64,000 bases of DNA from an uncultured bacterium (lineage in GTDB: Bacteria; Patescibacteriota; Minisyncoccia; UBA6257; 2-01-FULL-56-20), in contig CAVRXN010000002.1 of NCBI GenBank assembly GCA_963725235.1, forward strand, positions 378,902 through 442,901. The letters run 5' to 3'. The position numbers and the translations under genes were made by a program. The notes under the pieces are model-generated. The model had not been told where the DNA came from. It worked only from the letters and a program-made list of their open reading frames with translations, and ran no database searches. Shown here piece after piece: positions 11,375 to 52,019 of the stretch. Each line of letters begins with the position of its first letter. Positions within the stretch are counted from its first letter, which is position 1.

Positions 11375-11881
11375 TTACCGGATGTCGATAATGCGATATT
11401 CCTGTTCAGTGCCTGTGCCTGCTTTTATTTTCACGACATCGCCTTTCATATGTCCGATAAGCGCCGCGCCGAGCGGGGATTGGTGCGAGATACGTCCGTG
11501 CGTCGGATCCGTTTCGGCCGGACCGACAATTTCATATTTTTTTAATTTTTTGTTCAACTCCAAAACGACCGTCGATCCGAGTTGAATCGTTCCATCCCGG
11601 GCCGGCCCCGATGGAATCGCAACCGCGCGCTTCAGCTGTTGTTCGATTTCAAAAATCCGGCGATGCGCAAACCGCAGTGCACCTTTCGCCTGTTTGTACT
11701 CCGCATTGTCCGACCGATCACCATACGCAGCCGTGCGCGCCGCTTCACCCGCAAGCATCGGCACGCGCAGTTTCAAATTCGCGAGCTCCTTCTCGAGCCG
11801 CGCAATACCTGCTGGTGTCAGATGCACCGGTTCGCCATCCTGCTCACGCGATTCGTCATTTCGAAGCTTGTGGAGTTGCAT
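11375..11881 (-). CDS. GreA/GreB-family transcription elongation factor paralogue
   Basis: Coiled-coil tip reads GDRSDNAEY, and the C-terminal domain has ISHQSPLGAALIGHMKGDVV. It has a ~17-aa N-terminal extension relative to the second copy. Confidence 0.8.
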   Translation of the reverse strand: MQLHKLRNDESREQDGEPVHLTPAGIARLEKELANLKLRVPMLAGEAARTAAYGDRSDNAEYKQAKGALRFAHRRIFEIEQQLKRAVAIPSGPARDGTIQLGSTVVLELNKKLKKYEIVGPAETDPTHGRISHQSPLGAALIGHMKGDVVKIKAGTGTEQEYRIIDIR

Positions 11882-26745: not shown

Positions 26746-27844
26746 ATGTTTCTTTAGTTTGTTAGTGTTAGTCATTCGAACCCCTCGATCGAGGGTTTGA
26801 ATGCAAATTCAAATTCTTTTCAGAGGATTTGATCCTGGTCCAGGATGAACGCTGGCGGTGTGGATAAGGCATGCAAGTCGAGCGCCCCGCAAGGGGAGCG
26901 GCGAACGAGTTAGTAACACCCTGGTACGTACCTCGAAGTCGGGCATAGCTCGCCGAAAGGCGGGGTAATTCCCGATAGTCCCGCAAGGGTAAAGGTCGCA
27001 AGCCGCTTTGAGATCGGCCTAGGTCCGATCAGCTAGTTGGTAAGGTAACGGCTTACCAAGGCTATGACCGGTAGGGGAGGTGAGAGCCTGACCCCCACCG
27101 ACGAGACTGAGACACGGCTCGTACTCCTACGGGTGGCAGCAGTCGAGAATATTCGACAATGGGCGAAAGCCTGATCGAGCGACACCGCGTGCAGGATGAA
27201 GGCCTTCGGGTCGTAAACTGCGGTAGTATGAGTAACAATGCAAATGACGTGCCATATGGAAAGAGGTGGGTAACTACGTGCCAGCACCAGCGGTAATACG
27301 TAGACCTCAAGCGTTATCCGGATTTATTGGGCGTAAAGAGCATGTAGGAGGTTTTGCGCGTCTTTTGTTAAAGCCCACGGCCTAACCGTGGAACTGCAAG
27401 AGAAACGGCAGAACTAGAGGGGGTTAGAGGTGCATGGAACTCACGGTGTAGGGGTGAAATCCGTTGATATCGTGGGGAACACCAAAGGCGAAGGCAGTGC
27501 ACTGGGACCTTCCTGACTCTGAGATGCGAAAGCGTGGGGAGCAAAAAGGATTAGATACCCTTGTAGTCCACGCCCTAAACGATGTCTGTTTGCTGTTTCG
27601 AGTATCGACCCTCGGAGTGGCGTAGCTAACGCGTTAAACAGACCGCCTGGGAAGTACGGTCGCAAGGTTAAAACTCAAAGGAATAGACGGGGACTCGCAC
27701 AAGCGGTGGAACATGTGGTTTAATTCGATAGTAAGCGAGGAACCTTACCAGGGCTTGAAATGTACGTTGACGGGTCGATGGAAACGTTGCCCTTCTCACA
27801 AGGACAGTGTACGCAGGTGCTGCATGGTTGTCGTCAGCTCGTGC

Positions 27845-28739
27845 TTTGAACAACTTCGGAGCCTTCAGGAGTAATCTTGAAGTAAAATCTGGCTCATAAC
27901 GGGGGAACCGAGATATAATAAGTATTATGATTGGCAATCCCGTGGGAAGTTTGGAAGTTCCAACAATGCTTCGTGCAAGGAAAAACTTGAAGCTCGCGAT
28001 CAGCGAGCGGCAAAGGAATATTTTGATTGGTTGTGTATTGGGAGATGCATATATTTCTCCGAAAGGAAAAATCCGCATCGAACAATCTACAAAGCAATCT
28101 AAATATCTTTGGTGGAAATACGAAGAATTACATTCTTTAGCATATCCATCATTGCCGAGAGAAATTAAACACATTCACAAACCTACAGATCGAATTTATT
28201 CGTCGGAATTTTTTGATTTACGACAATATTTTCGACCATGGCGATCAATATTTTATCAAGGGAAAAAGATTTTTCCTGAAATGTTATTGATTGATTCGCT
28301 TTCATTAGCGGTATGGTATATGGATGATGGTTGCTGGACCGGTAAAAAATCGGTTATAGCAATAGAAGGATTTGATGATGAAAGCATCGAGAGAATCCAA
28401 CAAATGTTTCTAAATCATCTTGAAATAGAGACAATCGTTGGAAAGAATCGAAAACTTATCATCAGAAAAACCTCCCATGAATTATTTTATGGATTAATTT
28501 CTCCTTACATTATTCCTAGCATGCAGTATAAACTTCCAAACCCCGTAACGACTTATCCGAAAGGATGGAATGAGATTTTTGAATCTCATTAAAACGCCAG
28601 CTCCAGTGTAATGAAAATTACAGCTGGATGAAGGTATAGTCTGTGTTCTGTGAAACTTCGTTTCACGGATTGGTTCGCTCATCGAAAATGAAAATAAATT
28701 TTCATTTTCGCTTCGCTGCCAATCCTAAGAAATTTAGAA
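27845..28739 (+). mobile_element. Intervening sequence (intron-like) in 16S near E. coli position ~1075, encoding a homing endonuclease
   Basis: 16S collinearity breaks after CAGCTCGTGC and resumes at GGAAGTGTTCCCTTAAGTGGGGTAACGAGCGCAACCC. The insert is AT-rich. Boundaries are approximate (plus or minus 5 nt). Confidence 0.8.
27927..28592 (+). CDS. LAGLIDADG homing endonuclease (two-motif, monomeric type)
   Basis: ILIGCVLGDAYI and LAVWYMDDGCW motifs, located inside the 16S insertion. Confidence 0.85.
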   Translation: MIGNPVGSLEVPTMLRARKNLKLAISERQRNILIGCVLGDAYISPKGKIRIEQSTKQSKYLWWKYEELHSLAYPSLPREIKHIHKPTDRIYSSEFFDLRQYFRPWRSIFYQGKKIFPEMLLIDSLSLAVWYMDDGCWTGKKSVIAIEGFDDESIERIQQMFLNHLEIETIVGKNRKLIIRKTSHELFYGLISPYIIPSMQYKLPNPVTTYPKGWNEIFESH

Positions 28740-29284
28740 CGGAAGTGTTCCCTTAAGTGGGGTAACGAGCGCAACCCCTATTACGCGTTACAAGTGTCGC
28801 GTGAAACTGCCCCCGCTTTTGTCCGAGAGTGAATTCGACGATTGAATTCATAAACTCGCGGCCAGAAGCGGGGGAGGAAGGAGGGGATGACGTCAAATCA
28901 GCATGGCCCTTTGATGCCCTGGGCTACACACGTGTTACAATGGCGGTGACAATGGGTTGCCAACCCGCAAGGGGGAGCTAATCCCATCAAACATCGCCCC
29001 AGTTCGGATTGGGGGCTGCAACCTGCCCCCATGAAGCCGGAATCGCTAGTAATCGCAGATCAGCCACGCTGCGGTGAATACGTTCTCGAGTCCTGTACTC
29101 ACTGCCCGTCAACTCAAGGGAGCCGGTAATGGGCAAAATCTCTTTTCGGGATTAGTTCAAGATCGGTGACATGGAGTAAGTCGTAACAAGGCACCGGTAG
29201 CGGAAGCTGTCGCGTGGATCAATTAAACTACTACATCTAAGCAATGTAGTGGTGTCGCCAGCCAGACCAGTAGGGTCCGCTGAG

Positions 29285-30166: not shown

Positions 30167-31174
30167 ATGTTTGGCAAAAAAATCGGCATCGACTTGGGAA
30201 CGGCGAACACCGTTGTTTTTGTACCCGGCCGCGGATTTATCATCAATGAACCGACGATCGTCGCGCTGACACGTCCGGACAATGTCGTTCTCGCCGTCGG
30301 CCTCGAGGCAAAAGAAATGATCGGTCGGACGCCGGATGAAATCGTCGCATATCGGCCGTTGAAAGATGGCGTCATCGCCGACTACTATATTACGAAGGCG
30401 ATGCTGACGTACTTCATCTCGAAGGCGATCGGTTGGTTTAACATGATGAAACCCGATGTCGTCATCTCGGTTCCGGCGGGCATAACACAGACCGAGCGCC
30501 GCGCAGTCATGAACGCCGCGCGCGAAGCAGGCGCCGGCCAGGCATTCATTGTCCGCGAGCCGATCCTCGCCGCGCTCGGCGCCGGCATCCCGATCAACGC
30601 GCGCTCGGGCAACATGATCGTGAACATCGGCGGTGGCACATCCGAGCAAGCGGTCATCGCGCTCGGCAATATCGTTTCATGGAACTCGTTGCGAATCGCC
30701 GGCAACAAGTTCGACCACGCGATTATGGATTACGTTAAAAAGAAATACGCACTCGCGATCGGCGAGCAGACGGCGGAGACGGTCAAGATCGCGATCGGTT
30801 CTGCGCTGCCGACGAAGGAGAAAATGGAATATCAAATTCGTGGGCGTGACCTTGTAACCGGCCTCCCAAAGGATATTACGATAACATCAAACGAGATTGC
30901 CGAAGCACTTAATCCGCTTTTAATAGAAATCGCGCACTCGATCCAAAACGTTTTTAACGTCACCCCACCCGAACTCGTCGCCGATATTATGGAAAAGGGC
31001 ATCATCCTGTCCGGCGGCAGCGTCCAGCTGCATCATTTGCCAGAATTCCTCGAACGCTTTTTAGGCGTCCAGGCCTACGTCGCCGAGGATCCGTTATTCT
31101 GCGTTGCAAAGGGGACTGGTTTGATTCTGAATCATTTGGATACATATAAGAGGACGTTGCTGAATAAGAGGTAA
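30167..31174 (+). CDS. mreB: Rod shape-determining protein MreB (copy 1)
   Basis: IGIDLGTANTVVF, NEPTIVAL, actin-fold phosphate and adenosine motifs, 335 aa. Confidence 0.9.
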   Translation: MFGKKIGIDLGTANTVVFVPGRGFIINEPTIVALTRPDNVVLAVGLEAKEMIGRTPDEIVAYRPLKDGVIADYYITKAMLTYFISKAIGWFNMMKPDVVISVPAGITQTERRAVMNAAREAGAGQAFIVREPILAALGAGIPINARSGNMIVNIGGGTSEQAVIALGNIVSWNSLRIAGNKFDHAIMDYVKKKYALAIGEQTAETVKIAIGSALPTKEKMEYQIRGRDLVTGLPKDITITSNEIAEALNPLLIEIAHSIQNVFNVTPPELVADIMEKGIILSGGSVQLHHLPEFLERFLGVQAYVAEDPLFCVAKGTGLILNHLDTYKRTLLNKR

Positions 31175-31177
31175 AGT

Positions 31178-32011
31178 ATGATCGGCCATCAGAAAATCTT
31201 TGATGATCTGCAAAGCCTTAATGACCGGGGCTCACTCGGCCACGGTTATATTTTCCACGGGCCATCGATGGTGGGTAAAAAGCTCGCGGCGATCGAGTTT
31301 GCCAACTATCTAGAAAATGGAGTATTCGAGTCGGATAGTGGCCGCATCCTCTCCGACATGATGCTCGTCGAACCAGTCGGCAATGGTTCGATCGGAATCG
31401 ATGCGGTTCGCGAGATTAGGAATTTCCTCTGGCAAAAACCGAACGCAAGCTCGAGGCGAACCTTGATTATTGACGACGCGGAACTCGCAACAACCGAGGC
31501 GCAGAATGCGTTATTAAAAATTACCGAAGAACCACCGGTCTCGTCGCTGTTAATTTTAATAACATCCGACATAGAAAGTATTTTGCCGACGATTGCCTCG
31601 CGCTTGCCAAAAATATATTTTGGGACAGTGCCCGAAAAGGAAATTGCGACATGGCTAAAAGATCCGAAAACAGCAAAAAAAGCGGCAGGGAAACCGGGGC
31701 TCGCATGGCGATTGCTCCACGACGAAGATTTTCAAGAGCAGCTCACCCTGGCCGAAAAAGTCCTAAAATCACCCGCACCAACGCGCCGAGATCTTATTAA
31801 AAAAATATTAGAACCGGAAGATTTCAATTTCAGAAAGTTTTTGGATGCGATCATTTTGCAGCTGGCATGGCGCGAACAAACCAGGGCAGTGGCAGCGACC
31901 CAACAAGCAGCCGCACCGCTCTGGCATAAGGCGCTCGCGCTCTACGACCGCGAAACAAATTTTTCGTTAAACCCGCGGCTGCAACTTGAGGCGTTATTGG
32001 CGGGTGTTTAA
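31178..32011 (+). CDS. holB: DNA polymerase III delta-prime subunit
   Basis: GHGYIFHGPSMVGKK (P-loop-like), IIDDAE and TEAQNALLKITEEPP. Confidence 0.8.
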   Translation: MIGHQKIFDDLQSLNDRGSLGHGYIFHGPSMVGKKLAAIEFANYLENGVFESDSGRILSDMMLVEPVGNGSIGIDAVREIRNFLWQKPNASSRRTLIIDDAELATTEAQNALLKITEEPPVSSLLILITSDIESILPTIASRLPKIYFGTVPEKEIATWLKDPKTAKKAAGKPGLAWRLLHDEDFQEQLTLAEKVLKSPAPTRRDLIKKILEPEDFNFRKFLDAIILQLAWREQTRAVAATQQAAAPLWHKALALYDRETNFSLNPRLQLEALLAGV

Positions 32012-32059
32012 GCTCGTACCGGAACAAGTGTATAATAGAGTGAAAGAGTTAACGAAGGA

Positions 32060-32833
32060 ATGTCCCAACCCTATCTTTCCATTATCGTTCCCGCCTACAA
32101 CGAGGCGGAGCGGATTCCGAAGTCGCTGCTTGATATGGATAAGCGGCTTGAGCATGCGTCATATTCTTATGAAATTGTCGTCGTAAACGATGGTTCAACG
32201 GATAATACGGCGGCGATCGTTCGCAATCTAACAAAAGCGATAAAAAACCTGAAGCTGATCGACCTGACCGAAAATAGCGGCAAAGGTGGAACGGTCAGGC
32301 AGGGCATGTTGCTATCGGCCGGCAAGATCCGAATTTTTACCGACGCCGACAACTCGACATCAATCGACCAGTTCGAAAAAATGATGCCGTTCTTTAAAGA
32401 AGGCTACGATGTCGTCATCGGTTCGCGAGCCGTCAAAGGCGCTGAGCTCGATCCACCGGAATCATGGTACCGGCAGATTGCCGGCAAAATATTAAATCTT
32501 TTGGTGCAAGCATTGTTGCTGCCCGGGATCTGGGATACGCAGTGCGGTTTTAAGGCATTCACGCAGGAATCAGCGGAGAAGATATTTAAAATCTCAAGCA
32601 TATCCGGCTGGGGTTTTGACTTTGAAATTTTATCAATCGCAAGGAAGATGGGATATCGAATAAAAGAAGTTCCCGTACATTGGGTTGACGCTGCGGGTTC
32701 ACACATGACCTTGTCGGGCGGTTTGCAATTCCTCCGGGATATCGCTATAATTCGCTGGAGGTTGTGGCGGGGTGACTATGCTGCCGCGACCGATAAAGCC
32801 GCAAACGATGCGGCTCAAAATAAACTACCATGA
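32060..32833 (+). CDS. Family 2 glycosyltransferase (polyprenyl-phosphate sugar transferase-like)
   Basis: LSIIVPAYNE, VVNDGSTDNT and TDADNS. Confidence 0.85.
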   Translation: MSQPYLSIIVPAYNEAERIPKSLLDMDKRLEHASYSYEIVVVNDGSTDNTAAIVRNLTKAIKNLKLIDLTENSGKGGTVRQGMLLSAGKIRIFTDADNSTSIDQFEKMMPFFKEGYDVVIGSRAVKGAELDPPESWYRQIAGKILNLLVQALLLPGIWDTQCGFKAFTQESAEKIFKISSISGWGFDFEILSIARKMGYRIKEVPVHWVDAAGSHMTLSGGLQFLRDIAIIRWRLWRGDYAAATDKAANDAAQNKLP

Positions 32834-33288
32834 GCAAACAATACCTGACCCAAGAGCGCTTGGATGAGCTGAAAGTGGAATTGGATGAGTTGAAAAATAA
32901 AAAGCGGCAGGAGGTTGCGTTGCGCTTAAAAACCGCGAAAGAGTACGGCGATCTTTCGGAAAATTCGGAATACGTCGAAGCGCGCGAAGAGCAGGCGAAC
33001 GTTGAAGCGCGCATTTTCGAACTTGAAGAGTTGATGAAAGAAGTCGTCACGATAAAAACCGGCGAAGGCGGCGATATCGTCAGTGTCGGTTCCGTCGTTA
33101 CCGTAAAAAAAGGCGACAAGACCGTGACGTACACAATCGTCGGTTCATACGAAGCGAAGCCGGAAGAAGGGCGCATCTCGGATGAGTCACCGCTCGGCAA
33201 AGCGTTTCTCGGCAAGAAAGTCGGCGACATGGTTTCAGTCACGACACCCGGCGGTGCGATGAAGTACGAAGTATTAAAAATTGGTTAA
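32830..33288 (+). CDS. greA: Transcription elongation factor GreA (canonical copy)
   Basis: YGDLSENSEYVEAREEQ coiled-coil tip and ISDESPLGKAFLGKKVGD. Its ATG overlaps the upstream stop (ATGA). Confidence 0.9.
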   Translation: MSKQYLTQERLDELKVELDELKNKKRQEVALRLKTAKEYGDLSENSEYVEAREEQANVEARIFELEELMKEVVTIKTGEGGDIVSVGSVVTVKKGDKTVTYTIVGSYEAKPEEGRISDESPLGKAFLGKKVGDMVSVTTPGGAMKYEVLKIG

Positions 33289-33302
33289 ATGTTACCCGCG
33301 CA

Positions 33303-34526
33303 ATGCGTCAGTCGCAACTTTTCACAAAAACCGAACGAACTGCTCCGAAAGATGAGGTGGCGCTCAATGCGCAGCTTCTGACGCGGGGCGGTTTTATTTA
33401 TAAGAACTCGACAGGCGTGTACTCGTTTTTGCCGCTCGGCCTCCGCGTTTTGCGGAAAATTTCGGATATCGTACGCGAGGAGATGAATAATATTGGCGGC
33501 CAGGAAATAGCAATGCCGCTTTTGAACGATAAGCACTATTTAAAAGCGACGGGACGCTGGGATATTGATGTCGTCTATAAAGCAATAACCGGCGAGGAAA
33601 AAGATCCTTCGTTTAGTATTAGTTGGACCGGGGAAGAGATTATGAGTGAGATTGCAACACGCTACGTCGGTTCCTATAAAGATTTGCCGTTTGCCACATA
33701 TCAAATCCAGACGAAATTCCGACATGAACCACGAGCAAAATCAGGATTGCTTCGAGGTAGGGAATTTTTAATGAAAGATTTATACAGTTTCCACACGGAT
33801 GAAGCTGACCTTAAAAAATATTACGACCATGCCCGCGACGCATACTTTAAGGTATTTGAACGTTGTGGATTAAAAGCGATTTATACACTTGCTGCTGGCG
33901 GGGATTTTACCAGCAATCTCACTCATGAATTTCAAGTGGTTTCGTCGGTTGGCGAAGATACAATTTATGTTTGCGAAAAGTGCGGTTACGCTGAGAACGA
34001 CGAAATCTCGAAATTAAAAGAAGGGGAGGCATGTCCGAAATGCGGCGAAAAGATTCTTAAGGAAAAGGCGATTGAGGTCGGCAACATCTTTCCGCTGGGA
34101 ACAAAATTTTCAGAAGCGTTCAATCTGAAATTTAAAGACGAAAGCGGCGAATCGAAACTGGTCGTTATGGGTTCATACGGCATCGGCATCAGCCGCCTCA
34201 TCGGCGTCATTGTCGAAAAATTTAACGATGAAAAAGGTATTATTTGGCCCGAATCGGTTGCACCGTTCCGCGTACATTTGCTGGCGCTCAACGGCGCCGA
34301 TGGCAGCGCGGTTTACGAAGATTTACAGCACGCGGGAATCGAAGTATTATATGACGACCGGGACATGTCGGCGGGTGAAAAATTTGCCGAAGCAGATCTC
34401 CTCGGCATCCCGTGGCGCGCCGTCGTCAGTCCGAAAGTCGGCGAAGGAAAAATCGAGTTAAAAAGACGCAGCGAAAAAGAATCGCGCATTATGGACATCG
34501 CGGAAATTAAAACATTATTAAAATAA
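33303..34526 (+). CDS. proS: Prolyl-tRNA synthetase, bacterial-type but lacking the INS editing domain
   Basis: MRQSQLFTKT...LPLGLRVLRKI, YQIQTKFRHEPRAKSGLLRGREFLMKD (motif 2), GSYGIGISR (motif 3). It is only 407 aa, with CEKCG...CPKCG where INS normally sits. Confidence 0.9.
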   Translation: MRQSQLFTKTERTAPKDEVALNAQLLTRGGFIYKNSTGVYSFLPLGLRVLRKISDIVREEMNNIGGQEIAMPLLNDKHYLKATGRWDIDVVYKAITGEEKDPSFSISWTGEEIMSEIATRYVGSYKDLPFATYQIQTKFRHEPRAKSGLLRGREFLMKDLYSFHTDEADLKKYYDHARDAYFKVFERCGLKAIYTLAAGGDFTSNLTHEFQVVSSVGEDTIYVCEKCGYAENDEISKLKEGEACPKCGEKILKEKAIEVGNIFPLGTKFSEAFNLKFKDESGESKLVVMGSYGIGISRLIGVIVEKFNDEKGIIWPESVAPFRVHLLALNGADGSAVYEDLQHAGIEVLYDDRDMSAGEKFAEADLLGIPWRAVVSPKVGEGKIELKRRSEKESRIMDIAEIKTLLK

Positions 34527-34544
34527 ATTTGACATCAGAACCGT

Positions 34545-35588
34545 ATGGCACTCTTCGATAATATTTTTAAAGACATCGGCATCGACCTCGGCACGGCGAA
34601 TTCGCTTATTTACCTGAAACATAAAGGCGTCGTCGTGAATGAGCCGTCGGTTGCGGCGATGAACGCAAAAACGAACGCGATTTTGGCCGTCGGCGATGAA
34701 GCAAAAAAAATGCTCGGTCGCGTGCCACCGCATATTACGGTCGTCAGGCCGCTCGTCAACGGCGTGATTTCCGACTTCGAAATGACTGAGGAGATGCTCA
34801 GGCATTTGCTGAGCCGTCCGAAAGCGAACGGCATGACGTCGTATCGACGCGCGCTGCTCGCGATCCCGAATAATTTGACCGAAGTCGAGCGAAAATCGGT
34901 AGAAGATGCCGCGCTGAACGCTGGATGCGCGAAAGTATATCTCGTCGAGTCGCCGACAGCGGCCGCACTCGGCGCCGGTTTGCCAATAACACTCCCGGCA
35001 GCCAGCTTGATCGTCGACATCGGTGGCGGAACGACCGACATCGCAGTCATTTCGATGGGCGGCACCGTCGTTTCGCGGACGCTGAAAACCGCTGGCGATA
35101 AATTTAATGAAGATATAATAAGATTTGCACACGACGAATTCCATCTCGCGATCGGCGAGCCGTCAGCCGAATACGCGAAAATCGCGGTCGGTTCAGCGAT
35201 CCCACTCGACGAGCGATTGGAAATTGCTATCCGCGGGCGCGACATGACAACCGGCTTACCCCGCGAAGTTATGATGAAAAATAATCACGTGCGTATGGCC
35301 ATCGCGAAATCGCTGCGGACGATCGTCGACGCAGTGCGCGAAGTGATTGAGGAAACGCCGCCGGAGCTCGCGGGCGACGTCTTGCATCAAGGGATAACGC
35401 TGTGCGGCGGCGGTGCGTTGTTGCGCGGACTCGACGAGCTGCTCGAAAAAGAAACCGGCGTCGCGGTGCACATCGCCGACGATCCGCTGACCTGCGTCGT
35501 CCGCGGCCTCGGCCAGATGGTCGACGACTTCGACGCACATCGCGAACTGCTCGACAATCCGCTGAAACCGATCGCGATCAGTTTGTAG
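34545..35588 (+). CDS. mreB: Rod shape-determining protein MreB (copy 2)
   Basis: IGIDLGTANSLIY, NEPSVAAM, 347 aa. It heads the mreC/mreD-like/PBP2 cluster. Confidence 0.9.
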   Translation: MALFDNIFKDIGIDLGTANSLIYLKHKGVVVNEPSVAAMNAKTNAILAVGDEAKKMLGRVPPHITVVRPLVNGVISDFEMTEEMLRHLLSRPKANGMTSYRRALLAIPNNLTEVERKSVEDAALNAGCAKVYLVESPTAAALGAGLPITLPAASLIVDIGGGTTDIAVISMGGTVVSRTLKTAGDKFNEDIIRFAHDEFHLAIGEPSAEYAKIAVGSAIPLDERLEIAIRGRDMTTGLPREVMMKNNHVRMAIAKSLRTIVDAVREVIEETPPELAGDVLHQGITLCGGGALLRGLDELLEKETGVAVHIADDPLTCVVRGLGQMVDDFDAHRELLDNPLKPIAISL

Positions 35589-35589
35589 T

Positions 35590-36267
35590 ATGCTTAATCG
35601 GAAGCGACATGTATGGATTTTAATATTGTGCGTTCTCGCGCTCGCAATTTTAATATTCTTTGAACCAAGCTACGGCTGGCGACTCCGTGCCGCATTAACG
35701 CAGCACGACATTATCTCCGCCGATGATCCGACCTTGCCGGCGCAAAATCAAGCCCTGCAGGCGCAAATCGCGCAACTGCAAACGATAGCTGCCGAGGCGC
35801 CGCAGGCGACAACGGCAAACACGATTACCGCGATGGTGTATTCGCAATATCCATTCGGTTTCAAAAATGAATTATTGATTAACGCCGGCACGAATGAAGG
35901 AGTCGCGACCGGAAGTGCGGTAATGTATCAAGGCGTTTTTGTCGGTACCGTCACGCAGGTCTTCACCAACTCAGCGGCCGTCCAAACCGTTTTCGATCCA
36001 AACTTCAAGATGGCGGTCCGCGTCGGCAACGGTGGCATCGACGCATTGTTACAAGGCGGTGCCTATCCGAGCGCCGGCTCGATCGCCAAGGGTTCAGCCA
36101 TCGCCGCCGCCGACATCGTCTACACCGCCGCACCCGGCATCCCATACGGCCTCCCGGTCGCCGTCATCGCCGCAACGAGCACCTCCGCCGACAATCTCTT
36201 CGAAAACGCTTCATTAAATTTTGCCTACAACATCAACAACATTCAGGCCGTCGTGATACAAAAATAA
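35590..36267 (+). CDS. mreC: Rod shape-determining protein MreC
   Basis: N-terminal TM helix, a coiled-coil (QNQALQAQIAQLQ), then a beta-rich domain (GVFVGTVTQVF...). It sits directly after mreB. Confidence 0.7.
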   Translation: MLNRKRHVWILILCVLALAILIFFEPSYGWRLRAALTQHDIISADDPTLPAQNQALQAQIAQLQTIAAEAPQATTANTITAMVYSQYPFGFKNELLINAGTNEGVATGSAVMYQGVFVGTVTQVFTNSAAVQTVFDPNFKMAVRVGNGGIDALLQGGAYPSAGSIAKGSAIAAADIVYTAAPGIPYGLPVAVIAATSTSADNLFENASLNFAYNINNIQAVVIQK

Positions 36268-36276
36268 TGCGCTGCG

Positions 36277-36696
36277 ATGATTAAATTTTTCTCTGCCCTC
36301 GCCATCTTACTCCTCGCGCTCTTTGCTGAAATCGTTCTCGCCTCCGTCGGTTGGCATTTTACGCTCGCCCTCGCCGTCTTGATCGCCTTTGCCTTCGTCC
36401 TCGATTTTTGGGAATTGCTCATCCTCGACCTCGTCGCCGTGTTCATTCTCAACTGGCAGCCGGCGGCGAGTGCCGCGTTGATCGCGTTCGCCCTCGTACC
36501 GCTTCTGGCGTTCGCGTTTTATAAATTGACGCATTGGCATGGGTGGACCGGCGTTCTTGTTGCCATCATCATCGGATATTTGATTTTTTATATTGCTGCC
36601 GCGCCAGAGCAATTCGCCGGGAATTTGTTATCGTTCACACTAGATTTAATTGTCGGATTGTTAGCAGGGGAAGCAGTGCTGGCGGGGGTGGGATGA
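36277..36696 (+). CDS. MreD-like polytopic membrane protein (assigned by position)
   Basis: Four or five hydrophobic helices, located between mreC and PBP2. No diagnostic motif. Confidence 0.45.
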   Translation: MIKFFSALAILLLALFAEIVLASVGWHFTLALAVLIAFAFVLDFWELLILDLVAVFILNWQPAASAALIAFALVPLLAFAFYKLTHWHGWTGVLVAIIIGYLIFYIAAAPEQFAGNLLSFTLDLIVGLLAGEAVLAGVG

Positions 36697-36715
36697 AAAG
36701 ATTATCATATACCCC

Positions 36716-38685
36716 ATGGCAACGCATCGCAGCGGGAAAGGCGGCAAAAAAGATAACGACCTCGCATTCGAAGACGCATTGAGCGACGACTGGAACCGTG
36801 ATATCAAAGTCGCGGAGGTGCCAGTCGGCAACCGGCCATTGCTCGCGCTCGGCATCGGCGTCTTGGCAATCGCGCTCGCGATCGCCGGGCAGATTGTTAT
36901 TCTAAACATGACGAAAGGTTCATACTACGAAGCGCGCGCGGCGGACAACGTCGCGGATGAAAATGCGACGCCGGCACCGCGCGGAGAAATTTTAGACAAA
37001 GAAGGCACGGTGCTTGCCGACAGCCAAGCGGCATTCGCCGCGCTCCTGAATGCGACCGCATATATCGATGGCGATTCGATTTTACAATCGTCGACGGTCA
37101 GCGCCGCGCAATCGATTCTCGGCATCTCGACAACAACCTTCGGCGGTATTCTCGCGCAAGCGAACGCATCCAACTTTGCCGCACCGATCGTCTTGCAGGA
37201 AAATTTAACACAAACCGAACTCGTCAATTTGCAGGCGCTCAACTTGCCGACGATTATCATCCAAAATGATTTCGAGCGCTCATACCCGAACGGCCCGATC
37301 TTTTCATCCGTCGTCGGCTACGTCGGCCGCCCAACCGCAGCCGATCTCCAATCCGATTCGACACTAACAAGCGCCGGCTTCGTCGGCAAAGCTGGCATAG
37401 AAGAATACTACGACAACGAATTGCAGGGGACGCCGGGCGTTGATGTCCAGTATAAGAATGCGCAAGGGCAAGTGCTCGGCACGGGAACACAATCGCAGCC
37501 GAAGATCGGGCAAACGATAAAGCTGACAATCGATGGCGGGTTGCAAACGGAATTATATAACGCGCTGTCGAACGGCCTCAACTCGCTCGACCGCAGCGTC
37601 GGCCTCGGTCTCGCCATCGATCCGCAAAATGGCCAAATGCTCGCGCTCGTCAATTTGCCCGGCTACGACAATAATGTCTTCTCGCAATCGAATTCTAGTA
37701 CAGCAGCAATTATTAAAAATTTATTAACTTCGCCCGATGAACCATTGTTCAACCGGACCGTCAGCGGTTATTACAATCCCGGCTCGACGATCAAGCCACT
37801 CGATGCGGTCGCCGGACTAAAAGATGACATCATCGACCCGACGCAGGAAATCAATTCACCCGGCTACTTGATGGTTCCCGATCCGTATAACTCGTCGACG
37901 CCGACAAAGTATCTCGACTGGGAATCGCACGGCAACATCGACCTCGCCAATGCACTCGCACAATCATCAGACGTCTATTTCTATCTCGTCGGTGGGGGTT
38001 CGCCGCAATCGACGCCGATGCTCAACAGTCCGCTCGATTACGGTATCAGCGGCCTCGGCATCACGAAGCTCTATCAATGGTGGCAAACATTCGGCCTCGG
38101 CAAACCGACCGGCATCGACATGCCCGGATGAATCGTCCGGATTTTTGCCAACGCCAGCGTGGAAGCAATCAAAGATGGGCACGCCATGGCTGCTCGGCGA
38201 TACCTATAACGTCTCGATCGGCCAGGGCGATTTACTGCTCGGGCCGCTCCAATTGCTAAGCTATATCGACGCGATCGCGAATGGCGGAACGATTTGGCAG
38301 CCGTATCTGAACGCCAGTTCGACGCCAACAGTTAATGAAGATTTAACATCTTTATATCCGCAAATTCAGGACGTGCAGTTCGGCATGCAGGCCGGCGTCG
38401 AGTCGCCGCGCGGAACGTCGTATACGTTAAACGATTTGCCATTCGCGATTTGCGCGAAAACCGGTTCGGCACAGGTGCACGACAACTCGCAGGAAAACGC
38501 ACTGTTCGTCGGCTATGCGCCCTGTAACCCGGCGCTGTCGAACGACGACATGCCGCAGATCGCACTGCTTGATTCTGATCGAAAACTCGAAGCAAGGGAG
38601 TTTGAACGCCGTTCCGATAGCGAAGCAAGTATTAAATTGGTATTATGAGAATAGGATGACTAACACAAGTACAACATCGTCATGA
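36716..38685 (+). pseudogene. mrdA: Penicillin-binding protein 2 (elongasome transpeptidase) interrupted by two +1 frameshifts
   Basis: Frame A (36716-38131) carries STIK and SSD. Frame B (from 38130) continues ESSGFLPTPAWK...SIGQGDLL...KTGSAQ. Frame C (from 38572) gives ILIENSKQGSLNAVPIAKQVLNWYY and ends in an ATGA overlap with the next gene. The extra nucleotides are at ~38129 and ~38571. Confidence 0.8.
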
Positions 38686-39659
38686 GCGAGCTACGCCAAG
38701 ATCCTATTTCCGGCGATTGGGTCATCATCGCACCGGGCCGCAACGCCCGGCCCCATTATTTAGATAAAAAGAAAGCGAAACGCAAGCCGACGCCGAAATC
38801 GGCATGCCCATTCGAAGACCTCGCGGCTTCTCATAACGACCCGCTCGCGTTATATCCGAATGATAAAAAATGGCAGATCGCCGTAATTCCGAATAAATAT
38901 CCGGCGTTCGCGCATGAAAACGAATGCGCCGTGCCGATAGCCGAAGGCATTTACGAAAAAATGGAAGGTGTCGGCGAACATGTTCTAATCATCACGCGCA
39001 ACCACAACAAACATCTTGCCGAACTCAATCTCGACGAAGCAACAGATGTCTTTAAAGTTTTCCAGGATCGCTATCGTATCGCCGCGCAAGATCCGTGCGT
39101 TCGCTATGCAACCGCATTCTATAATTTCGGTCCCGGCGCCGGCGCCTCAGTCTGGCATCCGCACTATCAATTTATGGCTATGCCCGCGATTCCGTCGCAT
39201 AGCGTTCATTCGCTCGCCAACGCCGAAAAATATTATAAACAACACCGCCGCTGCCTGCGCTGCGATGTCATCGCGTTCGAGCGGCGAAAAAAAGTGCGTG
39301 TGTTCGCGGAAAATAAACATGCCATCGCAATCGCGCCCTATGCGTCGAAGCTCCCATTCGAACTCGGCATTATGCCCAAACAACATTTCGAATCATTCGC
39401 GACGACACCCGAGCCGATCCTGCGTGCGACCGCCGAGCTGACACAGCTCGTGATGCGTCAGCTAAAAAAGAACGTCAATGACCCCGATTTAAATTTTTTC
39501 ATCCATAGCACCTCGATCGACGGTAAACCCTACCCGCACCATCATTGGCATATCGAAATTTTCCCGCGCATCTCGACGCCCGCCGGCTTCGAGTTCTCGA
39601 CCGGCATGTATATCAACACGGTCGCGCCGGAAGATGCCGTGAAGATTCTTAAAAAATGA
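38682..39659 (+). CDS. galT: Galactose-1-phosphate uridylyltransferase family (HIT superfamily) protein
   Basis: RQDPISGDWVIIAPGRNARP, CPFE, IPNKYPAF and VWHPHYQFMAMP (HxHxQ). Confidence 0.8.
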   Translation: MSELRQDPISGDWVIIAPGRNARPHYLDKKKAKRKPTPKSACPFEDLAASHNDPLALYPNDKKWQIAVIPNKYPAFAHENECAVPIAEGIYEKMEGVGEHVLIITRNHNKHLAELNLDEATDVFKVFQDRYRIAAQDPCVRYATAFYNFGPGAGASVWHPHYQFMAMPAIPSHSVHSLANAEKYYKQHRRCLRCDVIAFERRKKVRVFAENKHAIAIAPYASKLPFELGIMPKQHFESFATTPEPILRATAELTQLVMRQLKKNVNDPDLNFFIHSTSIDGKPYPHHHWHIEIFPRISTPAGFEFSTGMYINTVAPEDAVKILKK

Positions 39660-40033
39660 TTAAAAAAATCGCCGCTCATCGGTTAATAACCGCACTCAGC
39701 GCTATAGCCATCGCATTCGTCATCGGCGGCTGCCTCTGGGCCTGCGCCGAACTCGGCGGTATCACAGGCAACCCGCTCATCCTCCACTTCAACGACTTCA
39801 ACGGCATCACGCAGGTCGGGGGACTGGCAACCCTCGCATTCATGGGCGTCTTCGGCACACTCGTCGTCCTGATGAACACCGCGATCGCACTCGAGTTCGC
39901 CGACCGCCCCGGTGCGTCCGCCCACGGCTCAGTCAATGGCCGGTTTTTCGGCAAATTCCTCGTCGCCATGACCCTCGCCTTCGCCGTCTTGCTTTTTATC
40001 GCGTTCGCGGCTATAATAAACGTCAACGTTTAG
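39656..40033 (+). CDS. Membrane protein, hypothetical
   Basis: Four hydrophobic segments. Its ATG overlaps the galT stop (ATGA). Confidence 0.5.
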   Translation: MIKKIAAHRLITALSAIAIAFVIGGCLWACAELGGITGNPLILHFNDFNGITQVGGLATLAFMGVFGTLVVLMNTAIALEFADRPGASAHGSVNGRFFGKFLVAMTLAFAVLLFIAFAAIINVNV

Positions 40034-40051
40034 TAAAACCAGCGCAAAAAT

Positions 40052-40381
40052 ATGGCAACCAAGGACTTCGCAATTATCGCAACAGGCGGCAAACAATATC
40101 GCGTTTCGGCGGGTGAAAAACTCATCGTCGAAAAACTCGACGCCTCCATAGATGCCGACGCCGGCAAGCCCATCGTCTTCGACGCCGTCTTGCTGCGCTC
40201 AATTGGCAACCAGGTGACCATCGGTGCGCCGCATATCGCCGGCGCGAAAGTCGAAGCCAAGCTCATCGGTAACTTCAAGGACCGCACCAAGATCGTTTTC
40301 AAATACCACGCTAAAGCCCGCTACAAAAAGAAAAAGGGCCACCGCCAGCCGCATACGGAGGTGGAGATTGTGAAGATCTAA
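40052..40381 (+). CDS. rplU: 50S ribosomal protein L21
   Basis: FAIIATGGKQYRVSAGEKLIVEKL ... KKKKGHRQPHTEVEI. Confidence 0.9.
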   Translation: MATKDFAIIATGGKQYRVSAGEKLIVEKLDASIDADAGKPIVFDAVLLRSIGNQVTIGAPHIAGAKVEAKLIGNFKDRTKIVFKYHAKARYKKKKGHRQPHTEVEIVKI

Positions 40382-41940
40382 TCTACATAGAAAATCGTCC
40401 CACTCGGCGTCCCAGCCGGAATCGCGCCGATCTCATCGGGCAATAAGTAGTGAATGTTATTGACATCCTTCTGCGCCACCGCATCCGGAACGAATGAGTT
40501 CGTAATATACATAACGGTTGTTGCGGGAACGGGGATGCCGTAATCGACGACACCGCCGGCTTCTACGACGACATATTTTTGCGTCGATGGCGGCAACGCG
40601 TTGATCTGTTCGCCTATCGCGACATAGTTCGCGCTGAACGCACCAGGGACGTTCGGGTTCTGTGCCCAGACGACGAAGTAATCATAGTAGCCATAGATGG
40701 TAACTGCGACGAGGAAGATGACGGCGATGGTATTCGCGATTGCTTTACCCCAATTTTTCCAGACGAAATAATGTGTTAAAAAAATATAAAGCCAAATGCC
40801 TGCGATCGCGGCGAAGACCATCGTCGGGACGACGGCGAGCAGTGAGCGGAGTGCGTGCGGGATGCCTTCGTCGGACAAAATTTCGGGCAACAGACCGAGG
40901 ATAAACCACGAACCAAGTAAACAAAGGCCGAATTCTGATTCCGAGCCGACGGCCCCGCCGACCCCAGATTTATTCTCCTTCGCACGAATCTGCATGCCGC
41001 GGAAAATCCAAACGATCGCGAGCACGATACCGAGCAGGAACAAGATGCCGACCGGCCACCAGAGTTCCGGCGCACCGGCAACGTTCTGCCGCCAGTTGCC
41101 ATCGCCGCGGAAGTTGAACATCAGTGCGGTCTTGCCGACATTAATTAAAAAATCATGAACGGGGCTCGCTGCGCTCGTTACGGAAATTTCCGAAGTACGG
41201 CCGAAGAACGCCGATGGGTTTTGGACAAAGAACAAGCCGATCGGCAACGCGACAATAAAGGTTGTTAATAAAAACATAATCGCACGTTGCCAGAAGCGCC
41301 AATTTTTTTTGAAGAACGGGAGAAAAACGAGCAGCAAAAGCGGAGCGATGCGAAAGGCGATGTACGTATAGAAACCGGCGCCGAAAATAATACCGGCGGC
41401 GATGGCGTACCAGAAGGCGGCGGGGCTGTGGTTTTTACCTTCGCGCGGTTTGGCCCGCAACGATTTGATTAAAAACCATAACGACCATGTTAAGCACAGC
41501 GGCGCGAGAATCGCACGGAAACCGATCCTAGAAAAATTAATGTGCCAAAACGATGTCGCCAACAAAAACGCAGCGAGTAGCGCGATCGCGTAACCCTCGT
41601 CACGCTCGCGGAACAGTTCAGCGACGAGTAAGTAAACGCCGAGGATAGTCAAGACACCCGCGACTGCGGCGGGGAAGCGAACGGACCACGGTGCGGTTTC
41701 AGGAAGCAAATGGAACTTGAACGCGATGGCCAAAATATTTACATATAACCCTTCGCGGCCGTTATCTTCTGGATAGAAGACCTTGAACTGGCCGGTTGCA
41801 GCAACATTCTGCGCATTCACGCCATCCATCGCTTCGTCAGGATACAAACCGGGCGGTGTGCTCGTCAGTTGATAGAAACGGAAGAAAGTTGCCAGTGCCA
41901 GGATTCCGACGAGCAGCCAGATGCGCGTTCGTTTAGACAT
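40378..41940 (-). CDS. Family 39 glycosyltransferase (ArnT/PMT-like polytopic membrane enzyme)
   Basis: FRFYQLTSTPPGLYPDEAMDGVNA in the first loop and more than 10 TM helices. ATG 41940 (MSKRTRIW) is preferred over the listed 41997. Confidence 0.8.
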   Translation of the reverse strand: MSKRTRIWLLVGILALATFFRFYQLTSTPPGLYPDEAMDGVNAQNVAATGQFKVFYPEDNGREGLYVNILAIAFKFHLLPETAPWSVRFPAAVAGVLTILGVYLLVAELFRERDEGYAIALLAAFLLATSFWHINFSRIGFRAILAPLCLTWSLWFLIKSLRAKPREGKNHSPAAFWYAIAAGIIFGAGFYTYIAFRIAPLLLLVFLPFFKKNWRFWQRAIMFLLTTFIVALPIGLFFVQNPSAFFGRTSEISVTSAASPVHDFLINVGKTALMFNFRGDGNWRQNVAGAPELWWPVGILFLLGIVLAIVWIFRGMQIRAKENKSGVGGAVGSESEFGLCLLGSWFILGLLPEILSDEGIPHALRSLLAVVPTMVFAAIAGIWLYIFLTHYFVWKNWGKAIANTIAVIFLVAVTIYGYYDYFVVWAQNPNVPGAFSANYVAIGEQINALPPSTQKYVVVEAGGVVDYGIPVPATTVMYITNSFVPDAVAQKDVNNIHYLLPDEIGAIPAGTPSGTIFYVD

Positions 41941-49289: not shown

Positions 49290-49304
49290 TATACTGAAAA
49301 CATG
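49290..49304 (+). promoter_or_regulatory. -10 box abutting the start codon (TATACT-N6-ATG)
   Basis: Hexamer at 49290-49295, ATG at 49302. Confidence 0.4.
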
Positions 49305-50336
49305 AACCCAAATTATCGCGCCTGGGATGTTCCCTTTGATGCTTTTCCTCTCGGGGAAACTGAAATGGATAAGTTAAAATTTTTACTCCGTTTTGCTATA
49401 CTGGCACCTTCTGGACATAATACGCAACCTTGGAATTTTTCGATCACTAGAAATGAGATTTCACTTTTAGTGAATCGTGAACGCTCGCTTGAAGGAAGTG
49501 ATCCGCATAGACGTCAACTTTTGATTGCTTTCGGATGCATGATCGAAAATTTATTTATTTCTGCAAATCATTACGGCTACGAAGCTAATATTAACTATTT
49601 TCCCAATTCGCAAAATCATGATCTGATTGCCAAGATTTCTATTGTTGAGAGCAGTGGAAATCATAAAAACAATAACAATGATTTATTTTTTGCAATTTCT
49701 GCGCGCCATACGAATCGGGGAAAATATCTCGACCGATCACTGCCGGAGAATTTTCTTCAACGCATCGAGCGATACGAAGAAAAAGATTTAAAAATTTCTA
49801 TCGTCACAGATAATGCTCAAAAACATATCATCGCTGACATCATCAATGAGGCGCAGATCGAAACTATGGATAGTTCAGAATTCCGCGAAGAACTCTCGCA
49901 GTATATTAAATCTAGTTTTACTCGGGAAACTACTGGCATGCCTGGTTTTGTATTAGAGATTCCTGCGCCAATATCTCTTTTTGCTTCTCGCTTAATAAAA
50001 AAGATAAATCTTTCTCGGAAGAGCCGAAAGAAAGATGATGCCTTACTTAAACAATATACCCCGGCCGCTTTCATAATTATTAGTTCGCGAGATAATGACC
50101 GAGGAAGTTGGCTTGCGGCTGGAAGATTATTCGAGAAATTATGGCTCACTGCTACGGCTGAAGGGTTAAATTGCTCACCGATGGCCGCAGCAATACAATC
50201 CCCAATATATAATAAGAGGCTTCGGGAATCTCTCGGTATCGATTTCGAGCCCCAGGTTTTTTTTCGCATCGGTTATGGGCGGAGACAGTTTCACCATAGC
50301 CCTCGATTTTCCGTGGAAGAACTTTTAAAAAAATAG
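49302..50336 (+). CDS. Acg-family (tandem nitroreductase-fold) putative FMN-binding oxidoreductase
   Basis: LRFAILAPSGHNTQPWNF, ISARHTNRG and ~340 aa in two nitroreductase-like halves. Confidence 0.7.
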   Translation: MNPNYRAWDVPFDAFPLGETEMDKLKFLLRFAILAPSGHNTQPWNFSITRNEISLLVNRERSLEGSDPHRRQLLIAFGCMIENLFISANHYGYEANINYFPNSQNHDLIAKISIVESSGNHKNNNNDLFFAISARHTNRGKYLDRSLPENFLQRIERYEEKDLKISIVTDNAQKHIIADIINEAQIETMDSSEFREELSQYIKSSFTRETTGMPGFVLEIPAPISLFASRLIKKINLSRKSRKKDDALLKQYTPAAFIIISSRDNDRGSWLAAGRLFEKLWLTATAEGLNCSPMAAAIQSPIYNKRLRESLGIDFEPQVFFRIGYGRRQFHHSPRFSVEELLKK

Positions 50337-52019
50337 ATGTCTACCATCACCAACATCGATCTCTTCGCTGTAGGTATCGTAGCGGCCGCAAGTTTAATTT
50401 TAGGCATCGCGGTTTTCATTAGTAATCGAAAAAGTGTAACTAGCACACTCTTTTTATTTTTTGTACTAATGAGTGTTGCTTGGAGTATCGTTAATTATCT
50501 TAGCTACCAAACTAACGATCTCGATTTCAAGTTATGGACAATTCGACTTGTATTATTCTTTGCGGCATTTTTTGTCCTTTCGTTCTTCATGCTTATGAAA
50601 ACATTTCCTGAGGAAAAAATGGATATGTCATGGAGTGCAAGATGGATTTTATTAGGGATAACCTCTGCCGTCGCGTTTTTCAGCCTTTCTCCATACGTCT
50701 TCCCAGACGTCATTCTAAGCCCAACTAGTCAGATAGCTCAGCCAGTGCCAGCATTTGGCATAGGAATATTTGGAATATTTGTAGTCTCGCTGATTATTGC
50801 TGGTATCGTGTCTCTAGTTAAAAAAATGAGAAGTGCTGAAACTCATCTAGCAAAAGTGCAGTTCGGCTATCTTTTGATTGGAGTGACGATAATGTTTGCG
50901 TTAATCATAGTTTTCAATTTTCTTTTTCCGGTCATTCTGCAGGATTCAAGATTTGTACCACTCGCTCCCATTTTCATTTTTATATTCATCGCATGTACCG
51001 CCTACGCCATTTTTAAGCATCACCTTTTAAACGTAAAGGTTATCACGACGGAGATTTTGGCCTTTTTGCTTACGGTGGCAACTTTTTCAGAAATAATATT
51101 TTCACAAACTTTGGTTGAAGTTTTATTTAGGGTTGGCGAATTCATCTTGGTCCTAATTTTCAGCCTACTCCTCATTAAAAGCGTATTAAAAGAGGTGGAG
51201 CAGCGTGAAGAGCTCGAACGCCTCAACAAACAAATCAATGAACAGAACGCCAAACTCGAAGATCTCTCGCACTTTAAGTCAGAGCTGCTCTCGCTTGCGT
51301 CACATCAGATAAAATCACCACTCGCGGCGATCAAGGGTTTTGCATCGCTGATCGGCGAAGGTTCGTATGGCGAGGTTGGCGCGCCCGTTAAAGAAGCGAT
51401 CGGTAAAATTCAAAAATCGGCGGATGGCCTGATCGGCCTCATCAACACGCTCCTCGACGTCCGCAAAGTCGAGGAGGGCAAGATGGAATACAAGTTCGAG
51501 CGGACGGACTTGAACGCGATGGTCGCCGGCTTTATGGATTTACTCAAACCGCTCGCGGATCAGAAGAAGCTCGAATTTACATTCGTCTCGCCGCGCGACA
51601 CCGATGGCAAACCGAAGCCAGTCTGGGTGAACGCCGATCCGGAGAAGTTAAAGCAGGTCGTCCAAAATCTTACGGATAACGCGATCAAATACACACCGAG
51701 TGGATTTGTTAAAGTTACATTAAAAGAAGGGCCGCCAGTTCCGGGCGCAGCAAACGCCGATGCAAATACAGCCGGCGCAATCGGCACCGCCACCGTCTCC
51801 GTCAACGACTCAGGCCTCGGCGTCGCCGCCGACCTGATCCCGCATCTCTTCGAGGAGTTCGTCCGCGATGAGCGCGTCAAAAAAGAAATCCGCGGCACCG
51901 GCCTCGGATTGTATATCGCGCGGAAGATCGCCGAAGCGCACGGCGGCAAAATCTGGGCCGAGTCACCCGGCGAAGGCAAGGGAAGCACGTTTAGCGTCAG
52001 CGTGCCGGAAATTAAATAA
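50337..52019 (+). CDS. Sensor histidine kinase with a multi-pass membrane N-terminal sensor region
   Basis: About 8 TM helices, a coiled coil, the H-box LASHQIKSPLAAI, the N-box NLTDNAIKYTP, and GTGLGLYIARKIAEAHGG. The ATG follows the upstream TAG with no gap. Confidence 0.9.
   Translation: MSTITNIDLFAVGIVAAASLILGIAVFISNRKSVTSTLFLFFVLMSVAWSIVNYLSYQTNDLDFKLWTIRLVLFFAAFFVLSFFMLMKTFPEEKMDMSWSARWILLGITSAVAFFSLSPYVFPDVILSPTSQIAQPVPAFGIGIFGIFVVSLIIAGIVSLVKKMRSAETHLAKVQFGYLLIGVTIMFALIIVFNFLFPVILQDSRFVPLAPIFIFIFIACTAYAIFKHHLLNVKVITTEILAFLLTVATFSEIIFSQTLVEVLFRVGEFILVLIFSLLLIKSVLKEVEQREELERLNKQINEQNAKLEDLSHFKSELLSLASHQIKSPLAAIKGFASLIGEGSYGEVGAPVKEAIGKIQKSADGLIGLINTLLDVRKVEEGKMEYKFERTDLNAMVAGFMDLLKPLADQKKLEFTFVSPRDTDGKPKPVWVNADPEKLKQVVQNLTDNAIKYTPSGFVKVTLKEGPPVPGAANADANTAGAIGTATVSVNDSGLGVAADLIPHLFEEFVRDERVKKEIRGTGLGLYIARKIAEAHGGKIWAESPGEGKGSTFSVSVPEIK

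Follow-up and report, generated by a model that had tools for sequence, protein, structure and literature searches.

Does a bacterium with an otherwise complete elongasome carry a broken PBP2, or is the break a feature of the sequence record? The question is raised by a stretch of 64 kb (hereafter the window) on a contig from a Paceibacterota (CPR) bacterium, in which the gene for the elongasome transpeptidase is written in pieces. We examined the gene and its surroundings, compared it with homologous proteins and DNAs including a nearly identical contig from an independent assembly, and weighed a consensus error against pseudogene formation, retention of a truncated protein, programmed frameshifting and a deviating genetic code.

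An ordinary PBP2 gene spread over three reading frames

The list of open reading frames and their translations showed that the coding sequence of the PBP2 (mrdA-like) gene runs through three consecutive reading frames (Table 1). The layout described by a sequence-only reading of this DNA, with a first frame ending GIDMPG-TGA, continuations from 38130 and from 38572, and a native stop that overlaps the start codon of galT (ATGA, 38682), agrees with the sequence. The first fragment covers the membrane anchor and the pedestal (PBP_dimer) domain and extends halfway through the transpeptidase domain, including the STIK and SSD motifs. The KTGS motif is located past the first frameshift, and the 471-aa product as written is therefore without the KTG motif. 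The protein sequence of the third fragment is identical to that encoded by L018, a contig assembled from sequencing run ERR11523662 that is described below.

A single protein of 655 aa results when one base is taken out near 38128 and another near 38567-38571. When searched against Pfam, this corrected protein matched PBP_dimer (PF03717, E = 4.8e-29, profile positions 2-178 of 180) and Transpeptidase (PF00905, E = 6.7e-48, profile positions 4-298 of 299), and it carries all three catalytic motifs of the family, SxxK as STIK at aa 357, SxN/D as SSD at aa 417 and KTG(T/S) as KTGS at aa 581. Both domains from end to end and the three motifs confirm the gene identity proposed from the letters alone, and the motifs that had been called intact are indeed so on the corrected protein. 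The one feature of a class B PBP that is missing from the window is an uninterrupted frame, the coding sequence occupying three.

The genes around PBP2 are those expected of an elongasome locus, with mreB, mreC and a gene for an mreD-like small membrane protein directly upstream in an order that is equal in L017 and L002, contigs of two relatives. The ORF list and Pfam matches also bear out the earlier statement that these genes and a second mreB copy are intact. The order mreC, mreD-like, PBP2, galT is found in L002 and L017 as well, and the order PBP2, galT, L21 in L001, L017, L018 and L021. In contrast to the usual context of PBP2 (MrdA), the gene has no rodA next to it in the window, and its downstream neighbour is galT, a position that galT also has in the relatives L001, L002 and L017. 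We conclude that this is an ordinary Paceibacterota (CPR) gene for a class B penicillin-binding protein of the PBP2/MrdA type, located downstream of mreB-mreC-mreD. It has the PBP_dimer and Transpeptidase architecture, the STIK, SSD and KTGS motifs and the place directly after mreB-mreC-mreD in common with the elongasome transpeptidase PBP2 (MrdA), and differs from PBP2 elsewhere in that the ORF is broken by two single-base insertions, in this assembly alone.

Table 1. Features of the PBP2 locus in the window (positions are those of the window)
Feature	Position	Strand	Remarks
mreB (second copy)	30167-31174		intact
mreB (MreB_Mbl)	34545-35588	+	intact
mreC (MreC)	35590-36267	+	intact
mreD-like small membrane ORF	36277-36696	+	intact
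PBP2 (mrdA-like) gene	36716-38685	+	coding sequence in three frames
PBP2 fragment 1 (frame 1)	36716-38131	+	ATG at 36716; 471-aa ORF; ends ...KPTGIDMPG, then TGA 38129-38131
PBP2 fragment 2 (frame 2)	38130-38570	+	from ESSGFLPTPAWK to ...DMPQIALL; bears KTGS
PBP2 fragment 3 (frame 3)	38572-38685	+	begins ILIENSKQGSLNAVPIAKQVLNWYYENR...; native C-terminus ILIENSKQGSLNAVPIAKQVLNWYYENRMTNTSTTSS; TGA 38683-38685
Frameshift site 1	38128-38129	+	window CCCGG-AT-GAATC; L018 CCCGG-T-GAATC; other relatives CCCGG-C/A-GA
Frameshift site 2	38565-38574	+	window CTGCTTGATT; L018 CT-CTTGATT (CTC TTG ATT); L002 TTGCTT-ATT (TTG CTT ATT)
galT-like gene (GalP_UDP_transf)	38682-39659	+	intact; protein identical in ERR11523662 contig
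Block of differences between window and ERR11523662	35042-38575	.	4 synonymous (mreB, mreD-like); 12 substitution events and 2 insertions in PBP2

Both insertions are private to this assembly

The corrected PBP2 has 983 homologues at E <= 0.001, and the best of these are Paceibacterota/Minisyncoccia (CPR) proteins that are 60-90% identical and in many cases named penicillin-binding protein 2; Paceibacterota proteins annotated in this way and within this range of identity number in the hundreds. Among the 120 best of the 983, 119 are encoded by single ORFs of 604-674 aa. The sole exception (P0009, 471 aa, 100% identical) is the assembly's own truncated product, which is recorded only from the source contig (510,887-bp, NCBI/ENA).

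At the DNA level, we aligned the gene with six homologues, comprising the JGI metagenome contigs L001, L002 and L017, the Logan contig L021 and the NCBI sequence L022, all with 76-82% nucleotide identity to the window gene, and the Logan contig L018 from ERR11523662, which corresponds to window positions 37002-40618 at 99.6% identity. The two +1 shifts deduced from the window alone reappear in these alignments as exactly two single-base gaps. Both extra bases are absent from all six homologous DNAs, with no further gap that disturbs the frame, and a comparison with strain-level variants or relatives, which had been suggested as a check, thus finds every one of them, including the 99.6%-identical L018, one base shorter at each site. 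L018 encodes ...GIDMPGESSGF...PQIALLILIENS... in one frame, up to the same stop overlapping galT.

A scan of contigs for copies with the same frameshifts gave only relatives at <=75% identity, and a pattern scan of JGI metagenomes across site 1 returned one distant relative only, which was intact. Protein look-ups with GroEL, the first MreB (mreB-1) and PMT_2 found no further contigs of ERR11523662 on record. The frameshifts are unique to this assembly and a near-identical intact allele exists. As the gene is intact in a 99.6%-identical assembly and in every relative, a consensus error is the most likely cause, or else a very young strain-specific pseudogene.

The extra bases probably combine two in-frame alleles

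The window letters that bear the extra bases are CCCGGATGAATC and CACTGCTTGATTC, and L018 reads CCCGG-TGAATC (GGT GAA TCG) and GCACT-CTTGATT (CTC TTG ATT) across the two sites. When compared with L018, the closest sequence, the extra base at site 1 is A38128, which matches neither of its neighbours (G-A-T); dropping the A leaves GGT and dropping the T leaves GGA, a glycine codon either way. At site 2, the extra base is G38567 in comparison with L018, and the alignments with the more distant relatives place the gap at 38571, the same position (~38571) as in the sequence-only reading. This G, too, matches neither neighbour (T-G-C), and both sites lie outside homopolymers, as had been noted before. 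The string at site 2, CTGCTTGATT, corresponds exactly to two registers merged into one, CTG/TTG CTT ATT (found in L002) and CTC TTG ATT (found in L018); it includes the G of both registers and is in this way one base too long. At both sites, dropping either of two adjacent bases produces a synonymous in-frame codon.

The frameshift sites fall in a strain-polymorphic stretch

Three Logan contigs of ERR11523662 (L023, L019 and L018) span window positions 31400-40618. The first of them (L023, 31400-35040) is 100% identical across 3,641 nt. L019 (35011-37006) shows four differences from the window, three in mreB (35042, 35087 and 35483) and one in the mreD-like gene (36336); each is a third-codon-position transition that is scored as synonymous. 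L018 differs by 12 substitution events (transitions in 9 of the 11 simple ones) and the two insertions, all within 37015-38575, and its other 2,043 nt are identical. No indels were present outside PBP2 in the 7.6 kb compared with these contigs. The differences are confined to 35042-38575, a block bordered by 100% identity over 3.6 kb (31400-35040) and 2.0 kb (38576-40618), 5.7 kb in total, and hence the frameshifts fall in the sole polymorphic stretch of the population. Since each of the four differences in the flanking genes is a synonymous transition, the window represents a truly distinct strain and is no noisy copy of L018. The 3.5-kb block, reaching from the 3' part of mreB through PBP2, shows the pattern left by recombination of a segment or by two strains that occur together and differ only locally.

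SNPs private to the window are T37098, A37521, A37637, GAC37835-37837, T37925 and C38575. The group of three bases in this list, at 37835-37837, is a complex variant, with GAC (Asp) in the window vs ACG (Thr) in L018 and close relatives. The change equals one G shifted by two bases, which is similar to the pattern at site 2 in the same gene. Among 40 homologues, the residue at this position is D in 28 and T in 9.

Substitutions between the window and the ERR11523662 contigs were counted by the Nei-Gojobori method. PBP2 has 5.5 synonymous (Sd) and 8.5 nonsynonymous (Nd) differences, corresponding to a pS of 0.0118, a pN of 0.0057 and a pN/pS of 0.48. The flanking genes have an Sd of 4 and an Nd of 0 in 5,270 nonsynonymous sites, with a pS of 0.0025. 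Both frameshifts and all nonsynonymous differences of the 9.2 kb compared thus fall in PBP2 (Fisher p ~2e-7). When the replacements were polarised with the relatives, five were derived in the window lineage (A128V, T269K, V308M, T374D and P404S) and one or two in L018. M308 and S404 are unique to the window among 40 homologues, the others having V or I and Y or P, respectively. As a measure of relaxed selection, the pN/pS of 0.48 in PBP2 vs 0 in the flanks is based on small counts and is accompanied by a raised pS, which in PBP2 exceeds that of the flanks ~4.7-fold. Such an increase is not explicable by relaxed selection and points to a locally divergent allele or local noise. We therefore rejected the idea that relaxed selection alone accounts for the excess differences.

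The remainder of the window is clean. Among ~50 further ORFs from all parts of it that were compared with Pfam, we found no other broken gene, each domain match running from end to end, which shows that the assembly is not generally indel-ridden. With one gene struck twice within 440 nt of a clean assembly, a local cause is needed. Switches of frame in a plot of codon usage at 15.8-17, 22.4-23.4 and 43.5-45.4 kb were resolved by ORF lists and Pfam as adjacent or overlapping intact genes, and the 16S rRNA gene accounts for the lack of protein-coding ORFs at 26.8-29.2 kb.

Consensus error or recent pseudogene?

We favour, with a probability of about 0.58, the explanation that the two extra bases are an assembly or consensus artefact in a strain-polymorphic stretch. 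An assembler or polisher probably combined reads of two alleles of this stretch that co-exist and differ slightly, and the consensus would then have retained one base of each allele, GG[A|T] at site 1 and CTG CTT ATT together with CTC TTG ATT at site 2. The true form would be one base shorter, CCCGG(A or T)GAATC at site 1 and CACTG(C)TTGATTC or CACTGCTTATTC at site 2, and the cells would have a normal single PBP2 ORF of ~655 aa. The source, a single CPR contig of 510,887 bp, was plausibly assembled from long reads. Metagenome assemblies from long reads at low depth are known to suffer from frameshifts (PMC13543314), and our case resembles such long-read or strain-mixed errors in that a conserved gene, otherwise perfect, is broken by single-base indels which an independent assembly of this population, L018, lacks; L018 is 100% identical over the 2 kb downstream. 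The indels also sit where two alleles co-occur. Classical long-read errors occur in homopolymers and genome-wide, whereas both indels here avoid runs and PBP2 is the only gene in the 64 kb that is hit; the search for similar indel errors elsewhere in the assembly, in the ~50 ORFs and the 7.6 kb outside PBP2, found none. Spontaneous 1-bp indel rates climb exponentially with homopolymer length (PMC8510543), and insertions of non-duplicative bases outside runs are therefore atypical as real mutations. A merging of two alleles would produce just such insertions.

The strongest competitor, which we consider plausible though less probable than an artefact, is a real and very recent inactivation that made PBP2 a young strain-specific pseudogene. 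The stop at 38131 would then give the 471-aa product without KTG, and the second insertion and several amino acid changes would have accumulated later under relaxed selection in a strain that uses another transpeptidase instead or that represents a deleterious variant of short duration. Several observations speak for a pseudogene and against an artefact. PBP2 was struck twice within 440 nt in a window in which no other gene is broken and random assembly error is thus infrequent; its 8.5 nonsynonymous differences from L018 cluster together with the frameshifts, and the five replacements that arose in the window lineage, including two that are unique among the 40 homologues, look like relaxed constraint; the substitutions are mostly transitions; and the purely synonymous flank differences mark the window as a distinct strain, as for a genuine sister strain. 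Private frameshifts, a premature stop that costs a catalytic motif and extra replacements in the same gene are also properties of young strain-specific pseudogenes. On the other hand, very close strains often show a pN/pS near 0.5 although no function has been lost, and synonymous divergence is raised in PBP2 as well. The remaining elongasome genes, two mreB, mreC and mreD-like, are without decay, and a double break of a normally essential gene in the dominant population, beside undecayed mreBCD, is a priori unlikely. The insertions also differ from those of young pseudogenes in their type, real 1-bp indels being concentrated in runs (PMC8510543). Thus, of the three options left by the sequence-only reading, pseudogene and sequencing or assembly error are both still live, with the evidence leaning to error, and a gene needing two frameshift events is effectively ruled out for the reasons given below.

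A different source of error could be methylation. The two sites are located 2 and 4 nt 5' of GANTC, and 1.6% of positions fall <=5 nt upstream of this motif. GANTC is depleted in the window, with 200 sites vs 330 +/- 16 expected from dinucleotide-preserving shuffles (100 of 100 shuffles had more), suggesting that GANTC may be methylated, which could disturb nanopore base calling. A methylation-linked nanopore error at GANTC is a weak, post hoc explanation, against which stand 17 other GANTC sites in the compared flanks without any discrepancy and two window-specific substitutions that create GANTC and do not corrupt it. As an observation in its own right, the scarcity of GANTC across the whole window suggests pressure from a HinfI/CcrM-type restriction-modification system.

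Should the insertions be real, it is also conceivable, though in our view improbable, that PBP2 cut after residue 471 has been kept in a non-catalytic role, as a partner of MreC and RodA, with cross-linking done by another enzyme. Still less likely, and close to negligible, are two programmed +1 ribosomal frameshifts that would produce full-length PBP2 from the sequence as written, in the manner of prfB or antizyme. Skipping one base per site restores the conserved protein exactly, and an in-frame UGA lies right at the shift point of site 1 (GGA UGA A), where a sense codon is followed by UGA and the product resumes one base on. This layout of site 1 is the only likeness to prfB and antizyme; conservation, slippery re-pairing and a stimulator, either a Shine-Dalgarno sequence or a structure, are missing, and a second, unrelated site is needed. 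None of the six homologous DNAs bears either insertion. At site 1, in spite of the stop, GGA is unable to re-pair in the +1 frame (GAU), and at site 2 CUG/CUU followed by GAU offers no stop or obvious pause codon and poor re-pairing, the old frame staying open for 26 more codons. No AGGAGG-like (Shine-Dalgarno) stimulator precedes either site, and the 100 nt downstream are no more stably folded than shuffled sequences (z = -0.94 and +1.37). Moreover, two inefficient events in series would yield very little product. The programmed double frameshift was therefore rejected for lack of conservation, of slippery codons and of a stimulator.

In some CPR lineages (Gracilibacteria, Absconditabacteria), UGA encodes glycine, and with UGA as a sense codon (genetic code 25 or 4) the first stop would be read through. 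This is the least probable of all explanations considered. Reading on in frame 1 past the TGA at 38129 gives the non-homologous IVRIFANASVEAIKDG... and not the conserved ESSGFLPTPAWK, and the relatives have the continuation in the next frame; UGA as sense is refuted by the frame of the homologous continuation. In addition, the lineage is Paceibacterota, long ORFs in the standard code cover the window, and the native stop of PBP2 is itself TGA. Recoding and any other readings together deserve hardly any weight beside an artefact and a pseudogene.

Other features of the window

The 16S rRNA gene (26822-29227, +) has its best match in the archaeal SSU model. Its span of 2,406 nt vs the 1,478 positions of the model implies an insertion of ~0.9 kb, and the product of an ORF within it (27927-28592) contains a complete LAGLIDADG_2 homing-endonuclease domain. 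Insertions in rRNA genes that encode such homing endonucleases are known from CPR bacteria. Two complete genes for GreA/GreB-type transcript cleavage factors (11375-11881, -, and 32830-33288, +) lie within these 64 kb of a very small genome, accompanied by the two MreB paralogues listed in Table 1. A 344-aa protein encoded at 49302-50336 (+), directly 5' of a 7TM histidine kinase gene (50337-52019), has two nitroreductase-type stretches (a Nitroreductase and a partial TM1586_NiRdase match) and may be a fused or duplicated nitroreductase. The partial ORF at 2-1459 (+) encodes a large Cys/Ser/Thr-rich protein that is probably secreted and contains an HExxH-like motif (ITHEMGHCMGLSH); its codon usage deviates from that of the remaining window.

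Significance

The interruption of PBP2 is most likely a consensus error, which we favour, or a very recent strain-specific pseudogene, and neither would represent a new kind of system or biology. The finding matters mainly as quality control. Frameshifts in the sole strain-polymorphic block, extra bases that match neither neighbour and a string that is the union of two in-frame alleles form a diagnostic pattern for a suspected artefact, and this pattern applies even where the rest of an assembly is clean. If the insertions are real, a normally essential gene would have become a pseudogene very recently, an ordinary case of modest interest; if a truncated PBP2 were retained, the locus would be a snapshot of a CPR lineage starting to dismantle or rewire its elongasome. 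The deposited sequence would lead to annotation of this bacterium as lacking a functional elongasome transpeptidase and could mislead inferences about the cell wall and cell shape of CPR bacteria.
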